From Candidatus Ruthia sp. Cpac_8_S14 (lineage in GTDB: Bacteria; Pseudomonadota; Gammaproteobacteria; PS1; Pseudothioglobaceae): a stretch of DNA of 64,000 nt. The notes below the pieces were generated by a model. That model was given only the letters and a program-made list of their open reading frames with translations. It was not told the origin of the DNA and searched no databases. The translations under genes and the position numbers were made by a program. Below are positions 10,568 through 31,883 of this stretch, in pieces. Numbering within the stretch: the stretch's first letter is position 1; each line of letters starts with the position of its first letter. Location: contig CP072533.1 of the NCBI GenBank assembly GCA_021730205.1, positions 585,380 through 649,379 on the forward strand, read 5' to 3'.

Positions 10568-11497
10568 TTAGAAATGTTGATAAGAACAACACTGCTTATC
10601 AAAAGATCCAATCTTAGTTAACACCATAGAGTCGTTAATAATGCCAATTTGGGTAACTTTAATATCGTTCCTACTTTGTAATGCTTTTAATAAATCCATA
10701 TTTTTAACTGCTACGGTAAAACATAATTCATAATCATCACCACCTGCAAGCACCAAACACCAATCATTGGTTTTTTTAATATAAGCTTTAACTTCATTAA
10801 TCAATGGAATATCATTAAGATTAATACTTGCACCTACGTTAGAACGAGTCAAAATATGTGTTAAATCTTGTTCCAAACCATCAGAAATATCAATACAAGC
10901 ATTGGCAATGTCTGATAGTTGCTGCCCTAAAAATAGTTGTGGTTCTGGTCGATTAAATTGGTTAATAACGCACTCAGAAGGTGTTTGGTTGTTTTGTAAC
11001 TGTTTCCAAGCGTAAGCTGCGTTACCAATCGTATTAGACACAAAAATTAAATCCCCTATTTGGGCAGATGAGCGCAATAAAGCTTTGTTCTTTTCAACCA
11101 CACCAGTAACATTGATGGTGATGCTAAGTGCGCCTTTTGTGGTATCACCGCCAATCAATGCAATGCCAAATTCATCTGCTAAAGATTTAAGCGAGATAGA
11201 GAACTGACTAAGCCATTTTTTGTTGATATTTGGTAATGTTAACGCAAGTGTGAAGTATTTTGCACGTGCACCCATTGCTGCCAAATCACTTAAATTAACT
11301 GCTAGGGATTTATAAGCAATATCACTAGCACTGGTATTTGAAGGAAAATGCACACCTTCAATCAAAGTATCAACACTAGTTACTAATTGGTAATTAGCAT
11401 CTATGTTAATAACGGCACAATCATCACCGATACCCAAATTAGCTAAATTTGAACCACCCCAATTAAAATAGGCTTCAATTAAAGAAAACTCATTCAC
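10568..11497 (-). CDS. thiL: Thiamine-monophosphate kinase
   Basis: GIGDDCAV, AVNLSDLAAMGA, LIGGDTT, CIDISDGL, GGDDYELCFT. Confidence 0.97.
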   Translation of the reverse strand: MNEFSLIEAYFNWGGSNLANLGIGDDCAVINIDANYQLVTSVDTLIEGVHFPSNTSASDIAYKSLAVNLSDLAAMGARAKYFTLALTLPNINKKWLSQFSISLKSLADEFGIALIGGDTTKGALSITINVTGVVEKNKALLRSSAQIGDLIFVSNTIGNAAYAWKQLQNNQTPSECVINQFNRPEPQLFLGQQLSDIANACIDISDGLEQDLTHILTRSNVGASINLNDIPLINEVKAYIKKTNDWCLVLAGGDDYELCFTVAVKNMDLLKALQSRNDIKVTQIGIINDSMVLTKIGSFDKQCCSYQHF

Positions 11498-12012
11498 TAA
11501 CTTTGTGGATATTTTTGTGCCAGTTTTTGATCAACTTCACCACGACCCGCATTAAACATTGAGCCAGAGCCCAACACAACAGATACTAAAATACAAAAAA
11601 ATAATGGCACCACACCTAACAAACTTAGAATTGAATCAATAATTCTTGTACCATCCATGCTTGCAGGTGCATCGTTTAAAATAATCAACGTTAGCGAAGT
11701 AACTAAAAAATAAAAAATATAAGCACCAATTAGTAATCTGTAACGATTAAGTGAAAGCTGCCAGTGTAAATAAACCAGATACGGGTCGTTGCTTTTGGCT
11801 TTTTTAGTCCGAAAATAAGTATAGATGATGATTATGAAGGAAATTAAAATAGACAAACCAATTGCACTGCTCATATCAGTATTTAACAATTTAATCAAAC
11901 CTAAGGTAAGAAATAAATGGACAATAACTGTATTAATAGTGAACAATTCGTGCGCTACTTTAGCGTCTCTACGTTCTTTAGCGCTGGCATCAATAGTAAT
12001 AATCATAACCAC
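11497..12012 (-). CDS. Hypothetical integral membrane protein
   Basis: 171 aa with about four hydrophobic segments; translationally coupled to thiL. Confidence 0.7.
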   Translation of the reverse strand: MVMIITIDASAKERRDAKVAHELFTINTVIVHLFLTLGLIKLLNTDMSSAIGLSILISFIIIIYTYFRTKKAKSNDPYLVYLHWQLSLNRYRLLIGAYIFYFLVTSLTLIILNDAPASMDGTRIIDSILSLLGVVPLFFCILVSVVLGSGSMFNAGRGEVDQKLAQKYPQS

Positions 12013-12053
12013 TAAGTTTACAGCATATTATCTCAAACCTAGCAGAGTGTTAC

Positions 12054-12632
12054 TTACATATAAGCGTTATCAGTATTGGAGTGGTCTGTTACATCACGTA
12101 CTGATTTAATCTCTGAAAAATGCGCTTTAAGCTGTGCTTCAACACCTTGTTTTAAAGTGGATTTAACCGATGAACAGCCCTGACAACCGCCACCAAAATT
12201 AAGAATAACGTCCATCTGCTTAGTAATCTCAACCAGTTCAACAAAACCACCATGAGAGGCAAGTCCGGGGCTGATATCAGCAGCAATAACGTATTTGATT
12301 TTCTCTTCAAGAGGTGCATCTTCTTTTGGCTCTTCGCCTTTAGCATTAGGCGCAGTGATTGTTAATTTCTTGCCAGTACCTGCATCTTTTAATGTTACTT
12401 CTGAGTCTCTCAAATATTCAAAATTTAGCTCATCAATATAAGCATAAAACCCTTTATATTCAAATTTTTGATACGTTTTACTTAACTCTTTAGGAAAGCA
12501 AAAATTAAAAGTGATGGCGGCGGTAGGTGTGCCAGATTTTTCAACATCTACCTTTAAGCCAAGGTCTTTTTCATCTTGTTGGGCAAATAAGTCAGCCACG
12601 TAAACTCTTGCTTCGTCAGTAATACTAAACAT
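12054..12632 (-). CDS. nfuA: Fe-S cluster carrier NfuA
   Basis: PGLASHGGFVELVE...FGGGCQGC NifU-C domain with an N-terminal degenerate A-type domain. Confidence 0.93.
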   Translation of the reverse strand: MFSITDEARVYVADLFAQQDEKDLGLKVDVEKSGTPTAAITFNFCFPKELSKTYQKFEYKGFYAYIDELNFEYLRDSEVTLKDAGTGKKLTITAPNAKGEEPKEDAPLEEKIKYVIAADISPGLASHGGFVELVEITKQMDVILNFGGGCQGCSSVKSTLKQGVEAQLKAHFSEIKSVRDVTDHSNTDNAYM

Positions 12633-12634
12633 GG

Positions 12635-13471
12635 TTATCCTTTTTTAAAAATTATATTGTCAATGAGTCGTACAGAACTTAACAACACTGCAGATAATAT
12701 AATAATTTGATGTGTATTACCAGTAATTTGTCTAAGGGTATTCGCATCTAACACCTCAAGATAGTCCAATTTAAAGTGTTTCTTTAAGTCAAATTCTGCC
12801 AATTTTTTTAACGCATCAATTTTTTTATTTTGTAAAATTTCACACTTAAGATAAAATAAAATTTTGTACAAATTAGTGGCAATCTTAGCCTCATTTTCAG
12901 ATAAATACTGATTTCGAGTACTCATTGCCAAGCCGCTTTTTTCTCTAATGATTTCACCAGATTTTATACATATATCCAATGACAAACTTTTGACCATTTG
13001 TTTAATAACCAATAACTGCTGATAATCTTTTTGACCAAAAACTGCAACATCAGGGCGTACAATCCCAAATAATATTTCCACAATCTGCGCCACTCCATTA
13101 AAAAAATGCGGGCGTGTTTTACCACATAAAATTTTCCCAATCTTACCAACATCAATATGTTTGCCGATGCCATTAGGATAAATTTGTTTAACATTTGGAA
13201 TAAAAACACCATCAACATTTGTCTCTAATGCTATTAAATCAGCATTAAGCGTGCGTGGATAACTATCTAAATCTTCATTTTTACCAAATTGAGCTGGATT
13301 AACAAAAATACTAACAATAACTTTATCTGCTTTTTGTTTAGCAATATCAATTAATGATAAATGCCCTTGGTGCAAACCACCCATCGTAGGAACAAATGCA
13401 ACAATTTTCCCCTGCGCGTGCCAGTCGTTAACCAGTTTAGTTATTTGAGTATTTTTATGACACAGCTGCAT
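12635..13471 (-). CDS. panC: Pantoate-beta-alanine ligase
   Basis: VPTMGGLHQGH, SIFVNPAQF, RPHFFNGV, FGQKDYQQ, GLAMSTRN, VRLIDN. Confidence 0.97.
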   Translation of the reverse strand: MQLCHKNTQITKLVNDWHAQGKIVAFVPTMGGLHQGHLSLIDIAKQKADKVIVSIFVNPAQFGKNEDLDSYPRTLNADLIALETNVDGVFIPNVKQIYPNGIGKHIDVGKIGKILCGKTRPHFFNGVAQIVEILFGIVRPDVAVFGQKDYQQLLVIKQMVKSLSLDICIKSGEIIREKSGLAMSTRNQYLSENEAKIATNLYKILFYLKCEILQNKKIDALKKLAEFDLKKHFKLDYLEVLDANTLRQITGNTHQIIILSAVLLSSVRLIDNIIFKKG

Positions 13472-14253
13472 TAATAACTGTGTTGTCTACTTGGAAAGGA
13501 CTTGTCTTTTACCGCCTTGATAAAAGCACTCACAGCAGACTTTACATCACCATTATTAATCAAGAAATTTTTAACAAATTTTGGCACGTGTCCTACATGA
13601 ATACCCAACATATCATGGCTCACCAATACTTGCCCATCACAATTCACACCAGCACCTATACCAATAGTAGGAATACTTAAAGATTGTGACACTTGTTTAG
13701 CCAGTTCAGCAGGGATGCATTCTAGCACGATTGCTTTAACACTCCAAGATGCCAAAGCCAAAGCATCTTTAGTAATTTTATCAGCGCTTTGCCTATCCCT
13801 ACCTTGCACTTTATAGCCACCCATTTCTATTACCGATTGTGGTTGCAAACCTAAGTGCCCACAAACAGGAATGTCATTATCTTGCAAAATTTTAAAAGAC
13901 GCTTCATGTTCACATCCGCCTTCAAGTTTTACCATTTGTGCACCTGCCATTATTAAACGCTTGGCGTTTGTTAAAGTTTGTTTAGTATTGGTATAACTTT
14001 GATAAGGCATGTCTACAATTCTTAATGTATTTTGCGTGCCCTTGGCAACCGCTTGTGCATGGTAAATCATGTCATCCATGCTTACACCTAATGTATTTTC
14101 ACAACCTTGAATAACACTACCGAGCGAGTCTCCTATTAAAATAATATCAATACCACACGTATCAAAAACTGATGCAAATGAAGCGTCATAAGCAGTTAAG
14201 CAAACAATTTTCTCGCCAGACTGTTTAAAAGTCTTTAGCGCTTCAATGTTCAT
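13471..14253 (-). CDS. panB: 3-methyl-2-oxobutanoate hydroxymethyltransferase
   Basis: LTAYDASFA, IGDSLG, VKLEGG, GHLGLQPQSV, IGIGAG. Confidence 0.97.
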   Translation of the reverse strand: MNIEALKTFKQSGEKIVCLTAYDASFASVFDTCGIDIILIGDSLGSVIQGCENTLGVSMDDMIYHAQAVAKGTQNTLRIVDMPYQSYTNTKQTLTNAKRLIMAGAQMVKLEGGCEHEASFKILQDNDIPVCGHLGLQPQSVIEMGGYKVQGRDRQSADKITKDALALASWSVKAIVLECIPAELAKQVSQSLSIPTIGIGAGVNCDGQVLVSHDMLGIHVGHVPKFVKNFLINNGDVKSAVSAFIKAVKDKSFPSRQHSY

Positions 14254-26781: not shown

Positions 26782-27838
26782 ATGCAATATCAAGATTTAC
26801 GAGAATTTATCACTAAATTAGAAAAACAAGGGCAACTCAAACGCATTCAAATACAAATTAATGCCCATTTAGAAATTACTGAGATTTGTCGCCGAACATT
26901 GGATAAACAAGCCCCTGCACTTTTGTTTGAAAATGTTAAAAATTCAAACATACCAGTATTGGCAAATTTATTTGGTACGATAAAACGTGTTGCTGTCGCT
27001 ATGGGGCAAAAAAAGACCTAACCGCATTAAGAGAATTGGGAAAACTACTAACTGAATTGAAACAACTTGAACTACCTAAGGGGTTTAAAGATGCCATTAA
27101 AAAATTATTCACGCTAAAAAAATACTTAATATGCCTGTTAAATTGGTTAAAAAAAGGCCAGTACCAAGCGGTGGTTATTGAAGGAGATGAGGTTGATTTA
27201 TCTAAATTATCCATTCAAACTTGTTGGCCTAAAGACGCTGCACCACTACTTACTTGGGGACTAACTCATTACCAAAGGACTATATAAGAAACGGCAAAAT
27301 TTAGGCATTTATCACTCCACTTATACAGGCAAGCCCGTTGATGAAACTGATGAAACTACTGTATTAAGTGTGGCACTAAACGAGGTGTTTGCATCACTTT
27401 TACAACAACAATTTTCAGAGATTATAGATTTTTACTTACCACCTGAAGCTTGCTCATATAGAATAGCGACTGTTAGCATTAGAAAGCAATACTCAGAGTA
27501 TGCTAAGCGTGTAATGATAGGCGTTTGGTCGTCCTTACGTCAATTTATGTATACCAAATTTGTAATTGTTGATGATGATGACATTGATGTTAAGAATTGG
27601 AAAGAGGTGATTTGGGCATTAAGTACACGTGTTGACCCAAGTCGTGACATCACTTTATATAGACAACACCCCTATTGATTATCTTGATTTTGCCTCACCA
27701 GTCTCTGGTCTTGGCTCAAAAATGGGCATTGATGCCACCAATAAACTGGCTGGCGAAACTAATCGTGAGTGGGGAGAGAGCCGATTGAAATGGATAAAAA
27801 CGTTGTACAAAAAATTGATGCTATTTGACATGAACTAG
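26782..27838 (+). pseudogene. ubiD: 4-hydroxy-3-polyprenylbenzoate decarboxylase, frameshifted with an internal deletion
   Basis: [37 protein letters not shown]|[46 protein letters not shown] spread over at least four frames. Confidence 0.95.
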
Positions 27839-27913
27839 GGATTGATTAATTGCAAGTCATGAGTAATTTAACTATTTACATTTCAATTTAACAAAGTATA
27901 ATTATCGTTTTTT

Positions 27914-27990
27914 CGGAGTGTAGCGCAGTTTGGTAGCGTATCTGGTTTGGGACCAGGTGGTCGGGGGTTCAAATCCCTCCACTCCGACCA
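27914..27990 (+). tRNA. tRNA-Pro (TGG)
   Basis: cggagtgtagcgcag...tctgg-tt-tgg-ga-ccagg...ggttcaaatccctccactccgacca, 77 nt. Confidence 0.96.
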
Positions 27991-28041
27991 AAAGAATACC
28001 TTACATTTAAAGCGCTTTAACAACAACCTTTTTTGGTATAT

Positions 28042-28115
28042 GCGCCCATAGCTCAGCTGGATAGAGCAACGGCCTTCTAAGCCGTAGGTCACACGTTCGA
28101 ATCGTGTTGGGCGTA
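28042..28115 (+). tRNA. tRNA-Arg (TCT); followed by CTA instead of CCA
   Basis: gcgcccatagctcagctggatagagcaacggcc-tt-cta-agccgt...gttcgaatcgtgttgggcgta cloverleaf with anticodon loop cttctaa. Confidence 0.95.
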
Positions 28116-28151
28116 CTACTTCAAGGTAAAATACCTGAAATAGTAGTTTAT

Positions 28152-28228
28152 GGCGGGAATAGCTCAGTTGGTAGAGCCCCGGATTGTGATTCCGGTTGTC
28201 GCGGGTTCAAGACCCGTTTCTCGCCCCA
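28152..28228 (+). tRNA. tRNA-His (GTG)
   Basis: G-1, anticodon arm ccgga-ttgtgat-tccgg, discriminator C and CCA. Confidence 0.96.
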
Positions 28229-28323
28229 TATTTCATAAGGGTTTTACCCCCCCTTCTTAACTAAATTCAAAGTCGATAAATCTTCTTTGCGTGTAGTTTT
28301 GCGTGCAATTTATGGAGATTGCT

Positions 28324-29303
28324 ATGGCTTACATACAAAAGGCTCAACGTAAAGGTGTTACTTATCGTGTACATATCCGCCCACCTGGTTTAAACCTATA
28401 ACCAAAACCTTTACTACTAAACGTGAAGCTGTTCGATTTGTTAACAGACTAGACGATGATAAGAGACAAATTCAAGCCTTTCAACAGAATAAACACAAGA
28501 CGCTATTGTCTAAAGTAATTGATGACTATCTAGTTAATGAATACAAAGGTCAAAGACCTAAAGAAGAGGAATATAAGCTTAACTACTGGAGGTCTTAGAT
28601 AGGAAGAAAGCAGATCTCAGAAGTTAGTAGAGTAGACATATCAAATGCTACTGTTAATTGCTATAAGGCCACTATTTCAGTAGTATTCACTTATGCCTGT
28701 AGATACTATAATTTATTAGACAATTCTGTTAAAAGCATACCCTCTAGACCAGAGAATAATGCTCGTATCAGATACTTGTCTAAGGATGAAAGAGCTTTTC
28801 TATTTAAAACAGCCAAAGAGTCAAAATGGAGTAAGTTGCATCTCATTACTTTGATGGCCATTACTACTGGAGCACGCAAAGGTGAGCTGCTAAGTTTGAA
28901 GTGGAATAATATAGACTTTAATCGGAATACTGCTTATATTGCCACCACTAAGAATGGAGATTCAAAAGTATTACCTTTAGTGAATGAAGTAATAACTGAA
29001 TTGAACAAATTCAAATAAGAAGAGTCTGGACTTGTATTTAATTCAGAGATCAAACCTAGTAAGCCTTACGACTTCTTTAAGCTATGGAAGAAAGCACTAG
29101 AACAAGCAGAACATTCAAGACTTTAGATTCCACAATTTAAGGCACACTACAGCCTCGTATTTAGCTCAGAATGGAGCTTCTTTGCTTGAGATAGCTTTTT
29201 GATGGTATTAGGTCACAAGAAAATTCAGATGACAAAGCGATATGCTCGCTTATGTATTGACCACAAGCAGAGGTTAATTAATAGTGTAATGTCTAACTTG
29301 TAA
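28324..29303 (+). pseudogene. Tyrosine recombinase/phage integrase
   Basis: MAYIQK...YRVHIR..TKTFTTKREA, AITTGARKGELLSLKW (catalytic R), TKNGDSKVLPL, FHNLRHTTASYLAQNGASLLEI..VLGHK..QMTKRYA (HxxR, H, Y). Many stops and frameshifts. Confidence 0.92.
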
Positions 29304-29484
29304 CTAATTCCTGTCTATAAATAACACCTCTCATAATGGGGAAAGTTGATCTAAATAGGTATTTCCTAGGAAGTGACATTTTTGCACTATTTTTAAAAAT
29401 TTATTCTAATAATTTCTTAATAACAGACACAGCTATGCCTATGAATTAATCGTATAGGTTATTATATCTGTTATTAGGAATTAA

Positions 29485-30730
29485 TCAGTAAAGGTGCTTA
29501 ATACTAGCAGTAATCGGCACATCATAGAATTCAAAGAATCGTTCTTGCATTAACTCTTGGACTTTCTTTGCGTGTTTAGATTTCGTAATTAAAGCATCAT
29601 GAAGAGGAAGAGGAGGAATGTTAAGTTTGATAAATTGTTTAATAACATCTATCATTATCCTTAATTCATCATTAGCAAGCTCTAACCCTATTCCAGAGTA
29701 GAAGTGTTTAGCAATCTTAGGGTGTTTATCTATGATTAATTGAATAGTAGAATCATAATCTAGACCCTTAAACTCACGCTTAATGGTTGCATCACTACAA
29801 TGACTAAAGCTCTTAGCAAGAGTGCTCTTGTTAATCATTCTCTGTGTCTGCTTCTTAATGCCATCTCTACTAACACCCAATGCAAACAAGCTCTGGAATA
29901 TCATAATCATCTGAATGGGAATATCTATCAAGTGCATACAGCTGAACTATGTGCATCGAACTAAAGTCTACTTCACTACAAGATTCGCCATTAATGATCA
30001 TACCTTGTCGTAATTCCTTCTTGAGGTTAATCCAGTAACCACCGTACATCCTGCCACCTAGGTCAAATGAATCGTGGCTGAATATTCTATGTATTTGGTT
30101 ATCTGTTGTATCTCTGTAAAGTGGACCCTCCTAATGGAATGTATGGTGTATCTATCTATTTAGGGTTTTGTACTTCTGTTCCTACTGCTGTTTCTATTGT
30201 TTGTATATCTAATATCTAATTCTCTTAAGTACTTATTAATCCCTTCTACTTCTTCTCTCATTAGGTTAGTGCTGCTATTGTCTTCGTAATCAACATTCCT
30301 ACTTTATCTTCTTAAAGTAGTGAGTAGTAGTAGTTTCTCTTAGGACGATCAGCTCATTCTATTTAAAGTAGGATGAAGCACAGCCAAATGGTTTGAAGTA
30401 CTCCATAAACTTATTTGTCTACCTTCTCCTTCCTCATCGCAATGTGATATGACTTATTTTCTCTAAGTATGTTCGAAACTATCTTCTCTAATGTATTAGC
30501 TAGTTTCATCCTTACACTAGCTCTAAATGAGTGAATTTACCTTTGGCAGCACTCTTTCTTTCTACATCTATTCTCTTACAGTATTCTTCTGACTGTTCTA
30601 TTGAGAAACTGTGTATAGCCCAATATAATTTAGTATCCTTATCTATTTCTATATTTGCTGGCATTCGTATTCAATTGTGTCTTTTTCAAATAATGTCACC
30701 ACTTCTTCATGGAACAGCTTATGCAATAGA
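29485..30730 (-). pseudogene. Family-A/T7-like (TV-Pol-type) polymerase-like protein
   Basis: IHRIFSHDSFDLGGRMYGGYWINLKKELRQGMIINGESCSEVDFSSMHIVQLYA (motif A-like), frameshift near 29885, RDGIKKQTQRMIN (motif B-like R..xK), PPLPLHDALIT (motif C-like HD). The region above 30130 is badly broken and its extent approximate. Confidence 0.6.
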
Positions 30731-30769
30731 GATTGTGCAGGTAGTTCACATAATTCTGTATGACTAATG

Positions 30770-31232
30770 GTGTTTGTTAATAACAATACTCTATCCCAAT
30801 CTTATTGAATATTTTACTTGCTATCTGGCATTTTTTGAATCAACATGGCTGATAAATTATCTTGATTTGATGATATCCAAATTTTGGAATGCCAATTAAT
30901 CTGATTGAGAAAAATAATCTTCAAATGTTTGTATCAATCCTTTTGAATTAATAGGCACTAATGACTGAAAATTATGCTTAGTTTGCGTATTATATAGGGT
31001 GGCAACGATTCTCCCTTTGCCTAAAATTTGACCAAAGTTATCATGCTCATCAATAACGCCATTCACTTTAACCATACCGCGTATCTTTAAATCATCGCTC
31101 AATTCACCAAATAGCTGTTTAAGCACTTTGAAATAATCAGATTTTTAATCATCTGCTACAAGGTCTGTTAATTGATAAATGTTGCCCACGGATGTTTAAC
31201 GCTTGGAATAAAAATCTTCTAATATTGTTCAT
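30770..31232 (-). pseudogene. hslO: Hsp33 redox chaperone, truncated before the Zn-binding Cys domain
   Basis: MNNIRRFLF..LNIRGQ, FQSLVPINSKGLIQTFEDYFSQS, KIWIS...AMLIQKMP, DWDRV. No CxC/CxxC segment follows. Confidence 0.8.
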
Positions 31233-31329
31233 AAAAGATACTTTAGTTAAAGTAAAAATTAATAATGAAATTTTTATTTATTCTAATCAAAAAAAATTAT
31301 CTTCAGTAGCAATACCACTAAAATTATGT

Positions 31330-31883
31330 ATTAGGCAAACAAGATTACAGCATTTGGTTTAAACCAGCAGGCGTATTCACCCAAGACTCAAAATGGGGCA
31401 ATCACTGTGCACTCACAGACTGGTTGAAAAATCTTTAAATCGTCATAGTTTCTTAGTACACAGGCTTGACAGAGCAACCAGTGGACTGATGATTATTGCT
31501 TACACAAAAACAACAGCACGGAACTTGTCTGACATGTTTACCAAACGACAAATTAAAAAAACGTATGTTGTCATTTTTAAAGGAAAATTTCCAAGTAGCA
31601 GCATCACACTGGATGAAAGAATTGACAAAAAAAGATGCACTTAGTTTTGCAACCTCAATAACGCATAATCATAACAAATCCTTATTAGAAATCAATATAA
31701 AAACAGGCAGAAAACACCAAATAAAAAAAGTATTTAAATAGCTATGGCTACCCAATCATTACTGATAGACTTTACAACAAAACTGAAAAAGTGTACATGG
31801 AAGATTTACAACTCCAAGCAACTTCACTTGAATTTATTTGCTCTATTGAATTAAAAGGAAACAAAAGATTTGAATTTAAATAG
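31330..31883 (+). pseudogene. RluA-family pseudouridine synthase
   Basis: WFKPAGV, LVHRLDRATSGLMIIA, IKTGRKHQI, frameshifted at ~31630. Confidence 0.85.

Follow-up and report, generated by a model that had tools for sequence, protein, structure and literature searches.

A probable stump of a tRNA-His genomic island with integrase and divPolA2-like polymerase pseudogenes in the genome of a mollusc symbiont

In the 64,000-nt stretch of the Candidatus Ruthia sp. Cpac_8_S14 genome analysed here (contig CP072533.1; the window, whose positions serve as coordinates throughout), a tRNA-His gene is followed by two convergent pseudogenes, one of a tyrosine integrase and the other of a polymerase-like protein. 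We consider it very likely, at a probability of roughly 80–90%, that positions 28229-30664 represent the decayed and truncated stump of a genomic island that was once integrated at the 3′ end of tRNA-His in a SUP05-clade ancestor of this mollusc symbiont. Its status as an island is based on homology to island-free relatives, which stops directly after tRNA-His and resumes at a relic of the host gene hslO, and on a left arm that is confined to island-bearing loci. The remaining stump is without function and is a fossil of reductive genome evolution. Relatives retrieved for comparison are designated by numbers preceded by L for loci and by P for proteins.

A dnaQ-neighbour genome scan retrieved Ca. 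Ruthturnera, Ca. Thioglobus and related genomes, with which the locus was compared. ARAGORN placed tRNA-Pro, tRNA-Arg and tRNA-His genes as a trio at 27914-28228 on the plus strand, and an Rfam scan of 27500-31500 returned nothing beyond these three tRNAs. The last of them, tRNA-His(GTG) at 28153-28228 (+; Rfam tRNA, 62.6 bits), is the integration target and forms the left island junction: homology to the island-free loci L012, L019, L024 and L013 stopped 2-5 nt past its 3′ end, at 28230-28233. The 95 nt following the tRNA aligned with the island-bearing loci L002 and L007 only and were absent in the island-free relatives. This non-coding left arm (28229-28323), located between the tRNA and the integrase start, holds the direct repeat TTTGCGTGTAGTTTTGCGTGCA. 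Furthermore, a T-loop base of tRNA-His differed with island presence (AAG versus AAA), a pattern that hints at an island origin of the 3′ part of the tRNA gene itself. On the far side, backbone synteny with L019 resumed at 30824 by blastn and, at the protein level, from the hslO (Hsp33) relic, a host gene outside the island that was located at 30655-31232 on the minus strand by tblastn with the intact 280-aa HslO of L019. An earlier interpretation made from the letters of this stretch (the sequence-only reading) had found the correct locus with limits of 28324 and 30730; the island starts at 28229, and the right limit overshoots by ~70 nt into the hslO relic.

The integrase pseudogene occupies 28324-29303 on the plus strand, with an ATG at 28324 and a stop codon at 29301-29303. 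That an integrase relic directly follows tRNA-His, as had been proposed, was borne out by the read-through translation, which matched the Pfam family Phage_integrase (PF00589) at E 2.5e-27 and shared 70% identity with the intact integrase of L007 (336 aa). Its lesions comprise three frame changes (~28392, ~29105 and ~29195), two in-frame stops (28596-28598 and 29016-29018) and a deletion of 11 codons, and the catalytic stretches ARKGE, FHNLRHT, LGHK and KRY, bearing the R, HxxR, H and Y residues typical of tyrosine integrases, can still be read, scattered over the shifted frames. A relative from a vent metagenome has an extra A at 28391, beside the first frame change, where a single A may have been lost from the relic. 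Just 5′ of the integrase start, at 28286-28310, we also observed a tandem half-repeat, TTTGCGTG(T/C)AG-TTTTGCGTGCA, which is kept in the equivalent positions of the island-bearing loci L002 and L007 and could be a putative regulatory or arm-type site. The spacer separating the two convergent relics (29304-29484) contributes to an imperfect inverted repeat, found by repeat search, with arms at 29387-29427 and 29467-29507. Viewed side by side and judged by eye, it matched the 175-nt spacer between the integrase and polymerase genes of L007, including AATAACAGA...TCTGTTATT.

The second relic, at 29485-30664 on the minus strand, is a pseudogene whose product would have joined a globular N-terminal domain to a minimal core of family-A polymerase, of the divPolA2 or TV-Pol-like kind. 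Indeed, the anonymous 150-aa open reading frame (ORF) at 29485-29937 (-), in which the sequence-only reading had seen the tail of a larger relic, turned out to be the C-terminal tail of a gene starting at 30664, and joining the frames near 29885 gave GGRMYGGYW, EVDFSSMHI..LYA, SRDGIKK and LPLHDALI in the claimed order. The joined relic matched phrog_4756 (unknown function, 440 positions) at E 2e-28 and was 77-85% identical to the intact metagenomic proteins P0001, P0002, P0003 and P0006. The frameshift near 29885 was the only lesion previously listed; upstream of it we found five further frame changes (~30127, ~30170, ~30310, ~30416 and ~30530), two in-frame stops and deletions of 3 and ~44 codons. 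The frame change at ~30416 coincides with the ~44-codon deletion, which takes out a near-invariant RY motif, and the GGR, EVD, D..Y, R...K and HD motifs remain legible. Pfam and NCBIfam gave no meaningful match for the relic or for 47 intact relatives.

The family is very large, lacks such a model and is listed in PHROGs as "unknown function". A word-indexed search returned six close relatives at 69-99% identity, the window's own ORF among them; the intact ones were ~360-370 aa as called, and the true ORF in L001 measures 425 aa. By exhaustive search, 5749 clusters (50% identity) were collected at E<=1e-3, typically of 400-500 aa. We aligned 47 cellular members, mostly 23-28% identical to the reference, and numbered residues according to P0007. 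In this alignment the arginine of the GGR motif before the palm (R252), the motif A aspartate of ELDY (D280), the lysine of the motif B signature RxxxK (K320) and the motif C pair H405-D406 were invariant, while the fingers aspartate D302 was present in 45 of the 47 sequences and the motif B arginine R316 in 46. Searches of PDB sequences with phmmer and with a profile in hmmsearch returned nothing at E<=10, so the fold was visible by structure comparison alone. The AlphaFold2 model of intact P0007, built from the 47-sequence alignment, reached a predicted local distance difference test score (pLDDT) of 88.9 and a predicted template modelling score of 0.85, and the family-A palm that the motif order had suggested was present: the best 50 PDB matches listed by Foldseek were all family-A DNA polymerases (KlenTaq, Bst, Taq and M. 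smegmatis Pol1, mostly the first two), the top match having E 5.5e-6 and probability 1.0 over ~280 aligned columns that covered the polymerase domain only. R252 lies in a hairpin, as read off the secondary-structure string of the model. Compared by hhalign with a single sequence, the polymerase domain of E. coli Klenow, the profile scored weakly (probability 4%, E 0.0098) but in the right register, pairing ELDY with DYSQIELR and R...K with RRSAK. The model thus supports a family-A palm and fingers with all catalytic motifs for the family of the minus-strand relic. Neither the window nor the fetched loci contained a polA gene.

The protein of ~430 aa has no 3′-5′ exonuclease domain and no canonical thumb; in the model, helices 166-184 and 196-204 could represent a reduced thumb. 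Its N-terminal ~190 residues form a separate domain of mixed alpha/beta structure, which reached a pLDDT of 78 when modelled alone. The structure matches of this domain, led by winged-helix DNA-binding proteins, among them MarR and the DNA-binding domain of CodY, offer a lead that it is possibly winged-helix-like and DNA-binding. Within the polymerase core, the column of residue 285, which the weak Klenow alignment pairs with the steric-gate residue Glu710, held His in 26, Ala in 7 and Gly in 7 of the 47 cellular members, and never Glu. Loss of this glutamate could bear on sugar selectivity and would be compatible with ribonucleotide use.

Intact copies of the family were found next to site-specific recombinases at tRNA genes, the linkage that the relic had led the sequence-only reading to expect. 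A convergent tyrosine recombinase was present in 12 of the 12 close-relative loci of the SUP05 clade that had enough downstream sequence; the adjacent tRNA was tRNA-His in five loci and tRNA-Arg(CCG) in L098. More distant members adjoin a resolvase in Kordiimonas L010 and in L011, and other integrases in L103 and L104. In L001-L003 the order is tRNA-His (called by ARAGORN in L002 and L003, not L001), integrase, a gene of the uracil-DNA glycosylase (UDG) superfamily, small ORFs including a cysteine-rich one of 92 aa, the 425-aa polymerase-like gene and a giant protein with immunoglobulin (Ig) domains. In L007-L009 a gap of 175 nt separates the integrase gene from the polymerase gene, an adjacency also seen in the window, and beyond the polymerase gene lie two small ORFs and a gene for a 1577-aa helicase, with a Sel1 protein in addition in L008. 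The helicase (L007:685-5418, -) matched the PADLOC Mokosh profiles MkoA and MkoC (E ~1e-38) as well as PDC-S37; by these profile matches, the islands carry defence-like genes. The integrase-polymerase pair was the sole part kept across all relatives.

Two further genes recurred between the members of this pair. The UDG-superfamily gene (Pfam PF03167, E 1e-10) occupied this position in two island types (L001:6270-7034 and L097:3827-4585). A cysteine-rich ORF of 87-92 aa (…CPxFxSCxSAFCPASMEG…) directly followed the polymerase-like gene in eight island types, at L001:5194-5472, L095:2162-2431, L104:7094-7357 and five more loci, and was 72-88% identical between islands. It had no Pfam, PHROG or PADLOC match, and its position makes it a candidate partner protein of the polymerase-like protein. 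The ORF was absent in L007-L009, and no remnant of it was detected in the integrase-polymerase spacer of the window. Upstream of the polymerase-like gene, the same-strand motif CTTATATAGTGAAAT occurred in six copies within 720 nt of L095 (L095:70-582), against 0.35 expected per locus; further sites lie at L100:1638-1951 (three copies), L004:1700-1789 and L001:3484-3498, and the corresponding region of the window is deleted. These repeats could, as a weak suggestion, be a putative iteron-like origin or operator array.

The polymerase-like family has been described before. A 2024 paper in Virol J named divPolA2, a protein with a PolA palm, no exonuclease and an N-terminal globular domain of unknown type that barbaviruses and other phages encode beside a regular polymerase (PMC11348598). 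Our 47-sequence profile aligned by hhalign with the divPolA2 representative AUR84708 (MG592441.1) at a probability of 99.4% and E 6.4e-22 over 322 columns, and the tblastn match in MG592441.1 fell inside AUR84708.1. In addition, Foldseek against BFVD matched the model to the entire length of phage proteins of ~430 aa, for instance those of Aeromonas phage 4L372D (E 3.8e-21) and a Rheinheimera barbavirus, where the protein is called a "DNA polymerase" (E 7e-17). By these comparisons the family is the one already described as divPolA2, with which it shares the N-terminal globular domain, motifs A, B and C in a palm and fingers of PolA type, and the absence of an exonuclease. The two sets differ in setting, since divPolA2 examples come from large lytic phages, which encode their replicative polymerase separately, and have neighbours that vary, whereas the window copy and all close relatives are chromosomal and convergent on a tyrosine integrase at a tRNA, usually with the cysteine-rich gene. 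They differ also in motif C, which reads HD(S/A) here and FDE in the phage representative, and at the steric-gate-equivalent position, where the phage protein AUR84708 has Glu and the cellular family His, Ala or Gly. Altogether, 106-107 phage genomes held a family match, some of them with two copies, and Vibrio phage ICP1 is among them. The ICP1 match is a 555-aa hypothetical protein, GP100 (L094:2972-4639), the C-terminal region of which resembles the polymerase-like family (tblastn E 6e-10).

A second described group is TV-Pol, defined by Iyer, Abhiman and Aravind in 2008 as a minimal A-family core without nuclease, a subset of which has an extra N-terminal domain and lies beside resolvases, lambda-type integrases or transposases (PMC2579912). 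Its conserved residues are an Arg in a hairpin before the palm, two catalytic Asp, and a fingers Asp with RxxxK, and its gene neighbourhoods hold a lambda-type integrase, a resolvase, a transposase or a D5 helicase (PMC2579912). The family studied here is alike in its four invariant residues R252, D280, D406 and K320, in the near-invariant D302 and R316, and in having no nuclease; its neighbourhoods, with tyrosine recombinases, resolvases or other integrases, are likewise of TV-Pol type. In contrast, the N-terminal domain of TV-Pol was predicted to be all-helical (PMC2579912), whereas that of our model is mixed alpha/beta. The family therefore fits the TV-Pol description in residues and neighbourhood, and we set it by description beside Sputnik V13, SCCmec CCPol and the Brucella element, with which the group was founded. 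The only link to these founding members, an indirect one, was a Foldseek match at E 8.9e-4 to the 778-aa "DNA replication protein" of Zamilon, which we take to be the counterpart of Sputnik V13; Foldseek placed the family nearer to bacterial Pol I than to this V13-like protein.

CCPol-MP of SCCmec, a DNA primase-polymerase, is the sole TV-Pol-class enzyme that has been assayed (PMC7581432). Like the gene pair described here, it is a truncated A-family polymerase that is carried on an integrative element beside a recombinase, has a small downstream partner gene and is thought to replicate the excised element (PMC7581432; 10.1101/2022.12.02.518924). However, CCPol is followed by an OB-fold partner and the helicase Cch2, whereas the relatives of the window copy have no linked helicase and a downstream small protein that is cysteine-rich. 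SCCmec elements, the bearers of CCPol, encode a UDG inhibitor (PMC7581432); given the UDG gene of the present islands, uracil handling may by analogy matter for such elements. The general layout also resembles that of tycheposons and islands of marine bacteria that resemble phage-inducible chromosomal islands, which have an inward integrase at a tRNA, a small replication module, variable cargo, no capsid or conjugation genes, and degenerate fragments at tRNA genes (10.1101/2020.12.28.424599). The likeness seen is one of general layout. Tycheposons are defined by a specific integrase lineage and hallmark-gene profiles, and for replication they carry primases, helicases and other kinds of polymerase, TV-Pol being unmentioned in that text (10.1101/2020.12.28.424599). 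Elements of this kind have accordingly been described before, as TV-Pol genes neighbouring integrases, as divPolA2 and, with regard to layout, as tycheposon-like islands. The sequence-only reading had rated its novelty too highly, as the family was described as divPolA2 (PMC11348598) and TV-Pol genes next to lambda-type integrases were reported in 2008 (PMC2579912). We found no prior report of this family at tRNA-His in genomes of the SUP05 clade or of clam or mussel symbionts.

From these data the intact island can be sketched. In intact relatives the tRNA-proximal core consists of an inward tyrosine integrase and a convergent gene for a polymerase-like protein of ~430 aa, usually with the cysteine-rich gene between them, and variable cargo follows beyond the polymerase gene. 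To judge by the junction observed here and by what is established for integrases acting at tRNA genes, the integrase would have recombined the attachment site of the element with the 3′ end of tRNA-His, and, as is known for tRNA-targeting tyrosine integrases, it would have mediated excision as well as integration. The polymerase-like protein would then prime and/or copy the excised circle, by analogy with CCPol-MP of SCCmec and in line with the 2008 TV-Pol prediction; we propose this role in replication or priming tentatively, and put it somewhat short of an even chance. More speculatively, replication might start at the direct repeats upstream of the polymerase-like gene in some relatives.

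A broader proposal, which we regard as rather unlikely, is that the integrase, polymerase-like and cysteine-rich genes are the core of tRNA-integrating cargo islands that replicate themselves without a helicase, an unrecognised class that would be widespread in the SUP05 clade and other marine proteobacteria. The polymerase-like protein would serve in them as a single-polypeptide initiator and primase-polymerase, acting at repeats by its own gene through a DNA-binding N-terminal domain and a minimal PolA core. If this were true, synthesis might start with ribonucleotides, given that His, Ala or Gly stands in place of the steric-gate Glu, and the window would be a fossil showing that the ancestor of a vertically transmitted symbiont hosted such elements.

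Several observations weigh against the picture of a self-replicating island at tRNA-His. In large phages, divPolA2 lies in variable regions next to a regular replicative polymerase, and its describers proposed a repair DNA polymerase or an RNA polymerase (PMC11348598). No helicase, single-stranded DNA-binding protein or other replication gene accompanied the polymerase-like gene. The CTTATATAGTGAAAT motif was absent in L007-L009 and L097 and is hence not family-wide, and the matches that suggest a winged helix in the N-terminal domain are weak (best E 1.2e-2). The literature we found reports no assay of any member of this subfamily. Finally, a search for a right attachment site (attR), which would directly repeat the 3′ end of the tRNA, yielded none in the window (at least 11 nt) or in L002, L003 and L007-L009, and leaves the island without a defined far boundary.

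Some of these points favour an alternative that leaves the island in place and denies the polymerase-like protein a replicase or primase function. The protein could instead polymerise RNA, serve in repair or translesion synthesis, or accompany the integrase as an effector of defence or counter-defence. The presence of the family in more than a hundred phage genomes (106-107, including ICP1) is in line with this possibility, as is the position of phage copies beside a regular PolB, sometimes as 2-3 paralogues; the lack of a linked helicase, the defence-like genes in the island cargo and a steric-gate position compatible with ribonucleotide use point the same way. However, the register of that position stems from the weak single-sequence hhalign (E 0.0098), and PADLOC gave no match for the polymerase-like protein, nor for the UDG-like protein or the small ORFs. 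Moreover, the tight conservation beside a recombinase across unrelated cargo argues for a core role in mobility or maintenance, and the one assayed enzyme of the TV-Pol class is a DNA primase-polymerase (PMC7581432). We consider the alternative unlikely, with enough in its favour to be taken seriously.

The truncation of the island was read from its far end. The hslO match stopped at 30655, corresponding to codon 227 of 280, the same position at which the polymerase match begins, and the ATG of the polymerase relic lies at 30664; the 5′ end of the polymerase relic is thus fused to a truncated hslO relic at a deletion joint at 30655-30665. By tblastn against L019, hslO itself is broken into three pieces in three frames, with two in-frame stops, and codons 228-280, the last 53, are gone. 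Intact relatives have an upstream region of 290-790 nt and cargo where the window has this joint. Because the polymerase start abuts the clipped hslO and the relatives keep the upstream region and cargo, the far side of the island appears to have been deleted along with the 3′ end of hslO. In the simplest account, one deletion would have removed the cargo side, the upstream region of the polymerase gene, the far attachment site and the end of hslO.

The joint also bears on the claim of the sequence-only reading that the locus is a minimal two-gene element, that is, a complete element of integrase and polymerase that decayed in place and lost no other gene. The direct adjacency of both genes in L007-L009 and the conservation of this pair across all relatives agree with that view. 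Nevertheless, every intact relative carries more genes beyond the pair (the helicase, the giant Ig-domain protein or the UDG gene, and in most of them the cysteine-rich gene), all of them have further genes beyond the polymerase gene, and no far-side attachment repeat closes the window copy. The window also lacks the upstream region present in every intact copy, and an ATG that abuts an hslO relic short of 53 codons is the signature of a deletion, which best explains the two-gene appearance. A complete two-gene element is therefore quite improbable, and the truncated island stump is preferred.

It is still less probable that the stump is a prophage remnant instead of a small non-viral island. 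The family is common in phages of Vibrio, Aeromonas, Klebsiella and Shewanella with genomes of 90-145 kb, and the integrase belongs to the phage-integrase family; yet the phage copies are only ~25-29% identical, whereas all close relatives (60-90% identical) are located in islands in which up to 10 kb of sequence held no capsid, terminase or tail gene, and a query of IMG/VR with P0007 returned no close relative. The metagenome scan gave short contigs, and no complete island with both ends was recovered from it.

Both genes are defunct, and assembly errors do not account for their lesions, because contigs from the metagenome of an independent study (run X2) reproduced them: these contigs span 28100-31300 at >=99% identity and show no difference within either gene, the sole deviation being one extra C at 28246, in a C run of the non-coding left arm. 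Another run, X1, which resembles the source, is a metagenome from a mollusc. Homopolymer errors can create frameshifts, and a C-run length difference was indeed seen, but in-frame stops and deletions of 11, 44 and 3 codons are not errors of this type and the neighbouring long ORFs, up to 1274 aa, are unbroken, which makes it hardly credible that the genes are intact in vivo.

Instead of anonymous ORFs, the stretch is accordingly best annotated as the two pseudogenes of an island stump and a truncated hslO. It is a record of the mobile island that the ancestor of the symbiont carried at tRNA-His; a preprint on clam symbionts had described mobile-element islands as typical of free-living relatives and missing from reduced symbionts (10.1101/2020.02.01.930370). 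The data also connect the divPolA2 of phages with chromosomal integrase- or resolvase-linked elements of the TV-Pol type, for a family that has no Pfam or NCBIfam model. Intact copies from the SUP05 clade, for example the 425-aa ORF of L001, are candidates for asking whether a minimal A-family polymerase alone can prime and replicate a small mobile element.

Further decay was noted around the locus. Between dnaQ and the tRNA cluster, a ubiD-like gene at 26782-27838 (+), so named from its ORF translation, is by eye split into several ORFs and is ~400 nt shorter than its counterpart in Ca. Ruthturnera L012 (window 27313/27306 corresponding to L012 11221/11628); it is probably another pseudogene. 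On the other side, a relic at 31105-31850 (+), typed from its sequence as an RluA-type pseudouridine synthase, is spread over three frames with internal stops relative to the intact 274-aa protein of L019, and together with hslO and ubiD it brings the pseudogenes to at least five within 5 kb. The site itself is a variable spot in the clade. L013 has a different integrase there (11355-12200; 26% identical), and in L012 tRNA-His is followed (12540-14240) by a 131-aa ORF, by eye a probable HicB-like protein of toxin-antitoxin type, and an insertion-sequence transposase, then by unrelated genes. The contigs L015 and L018 break off exactly at tRNA-His.

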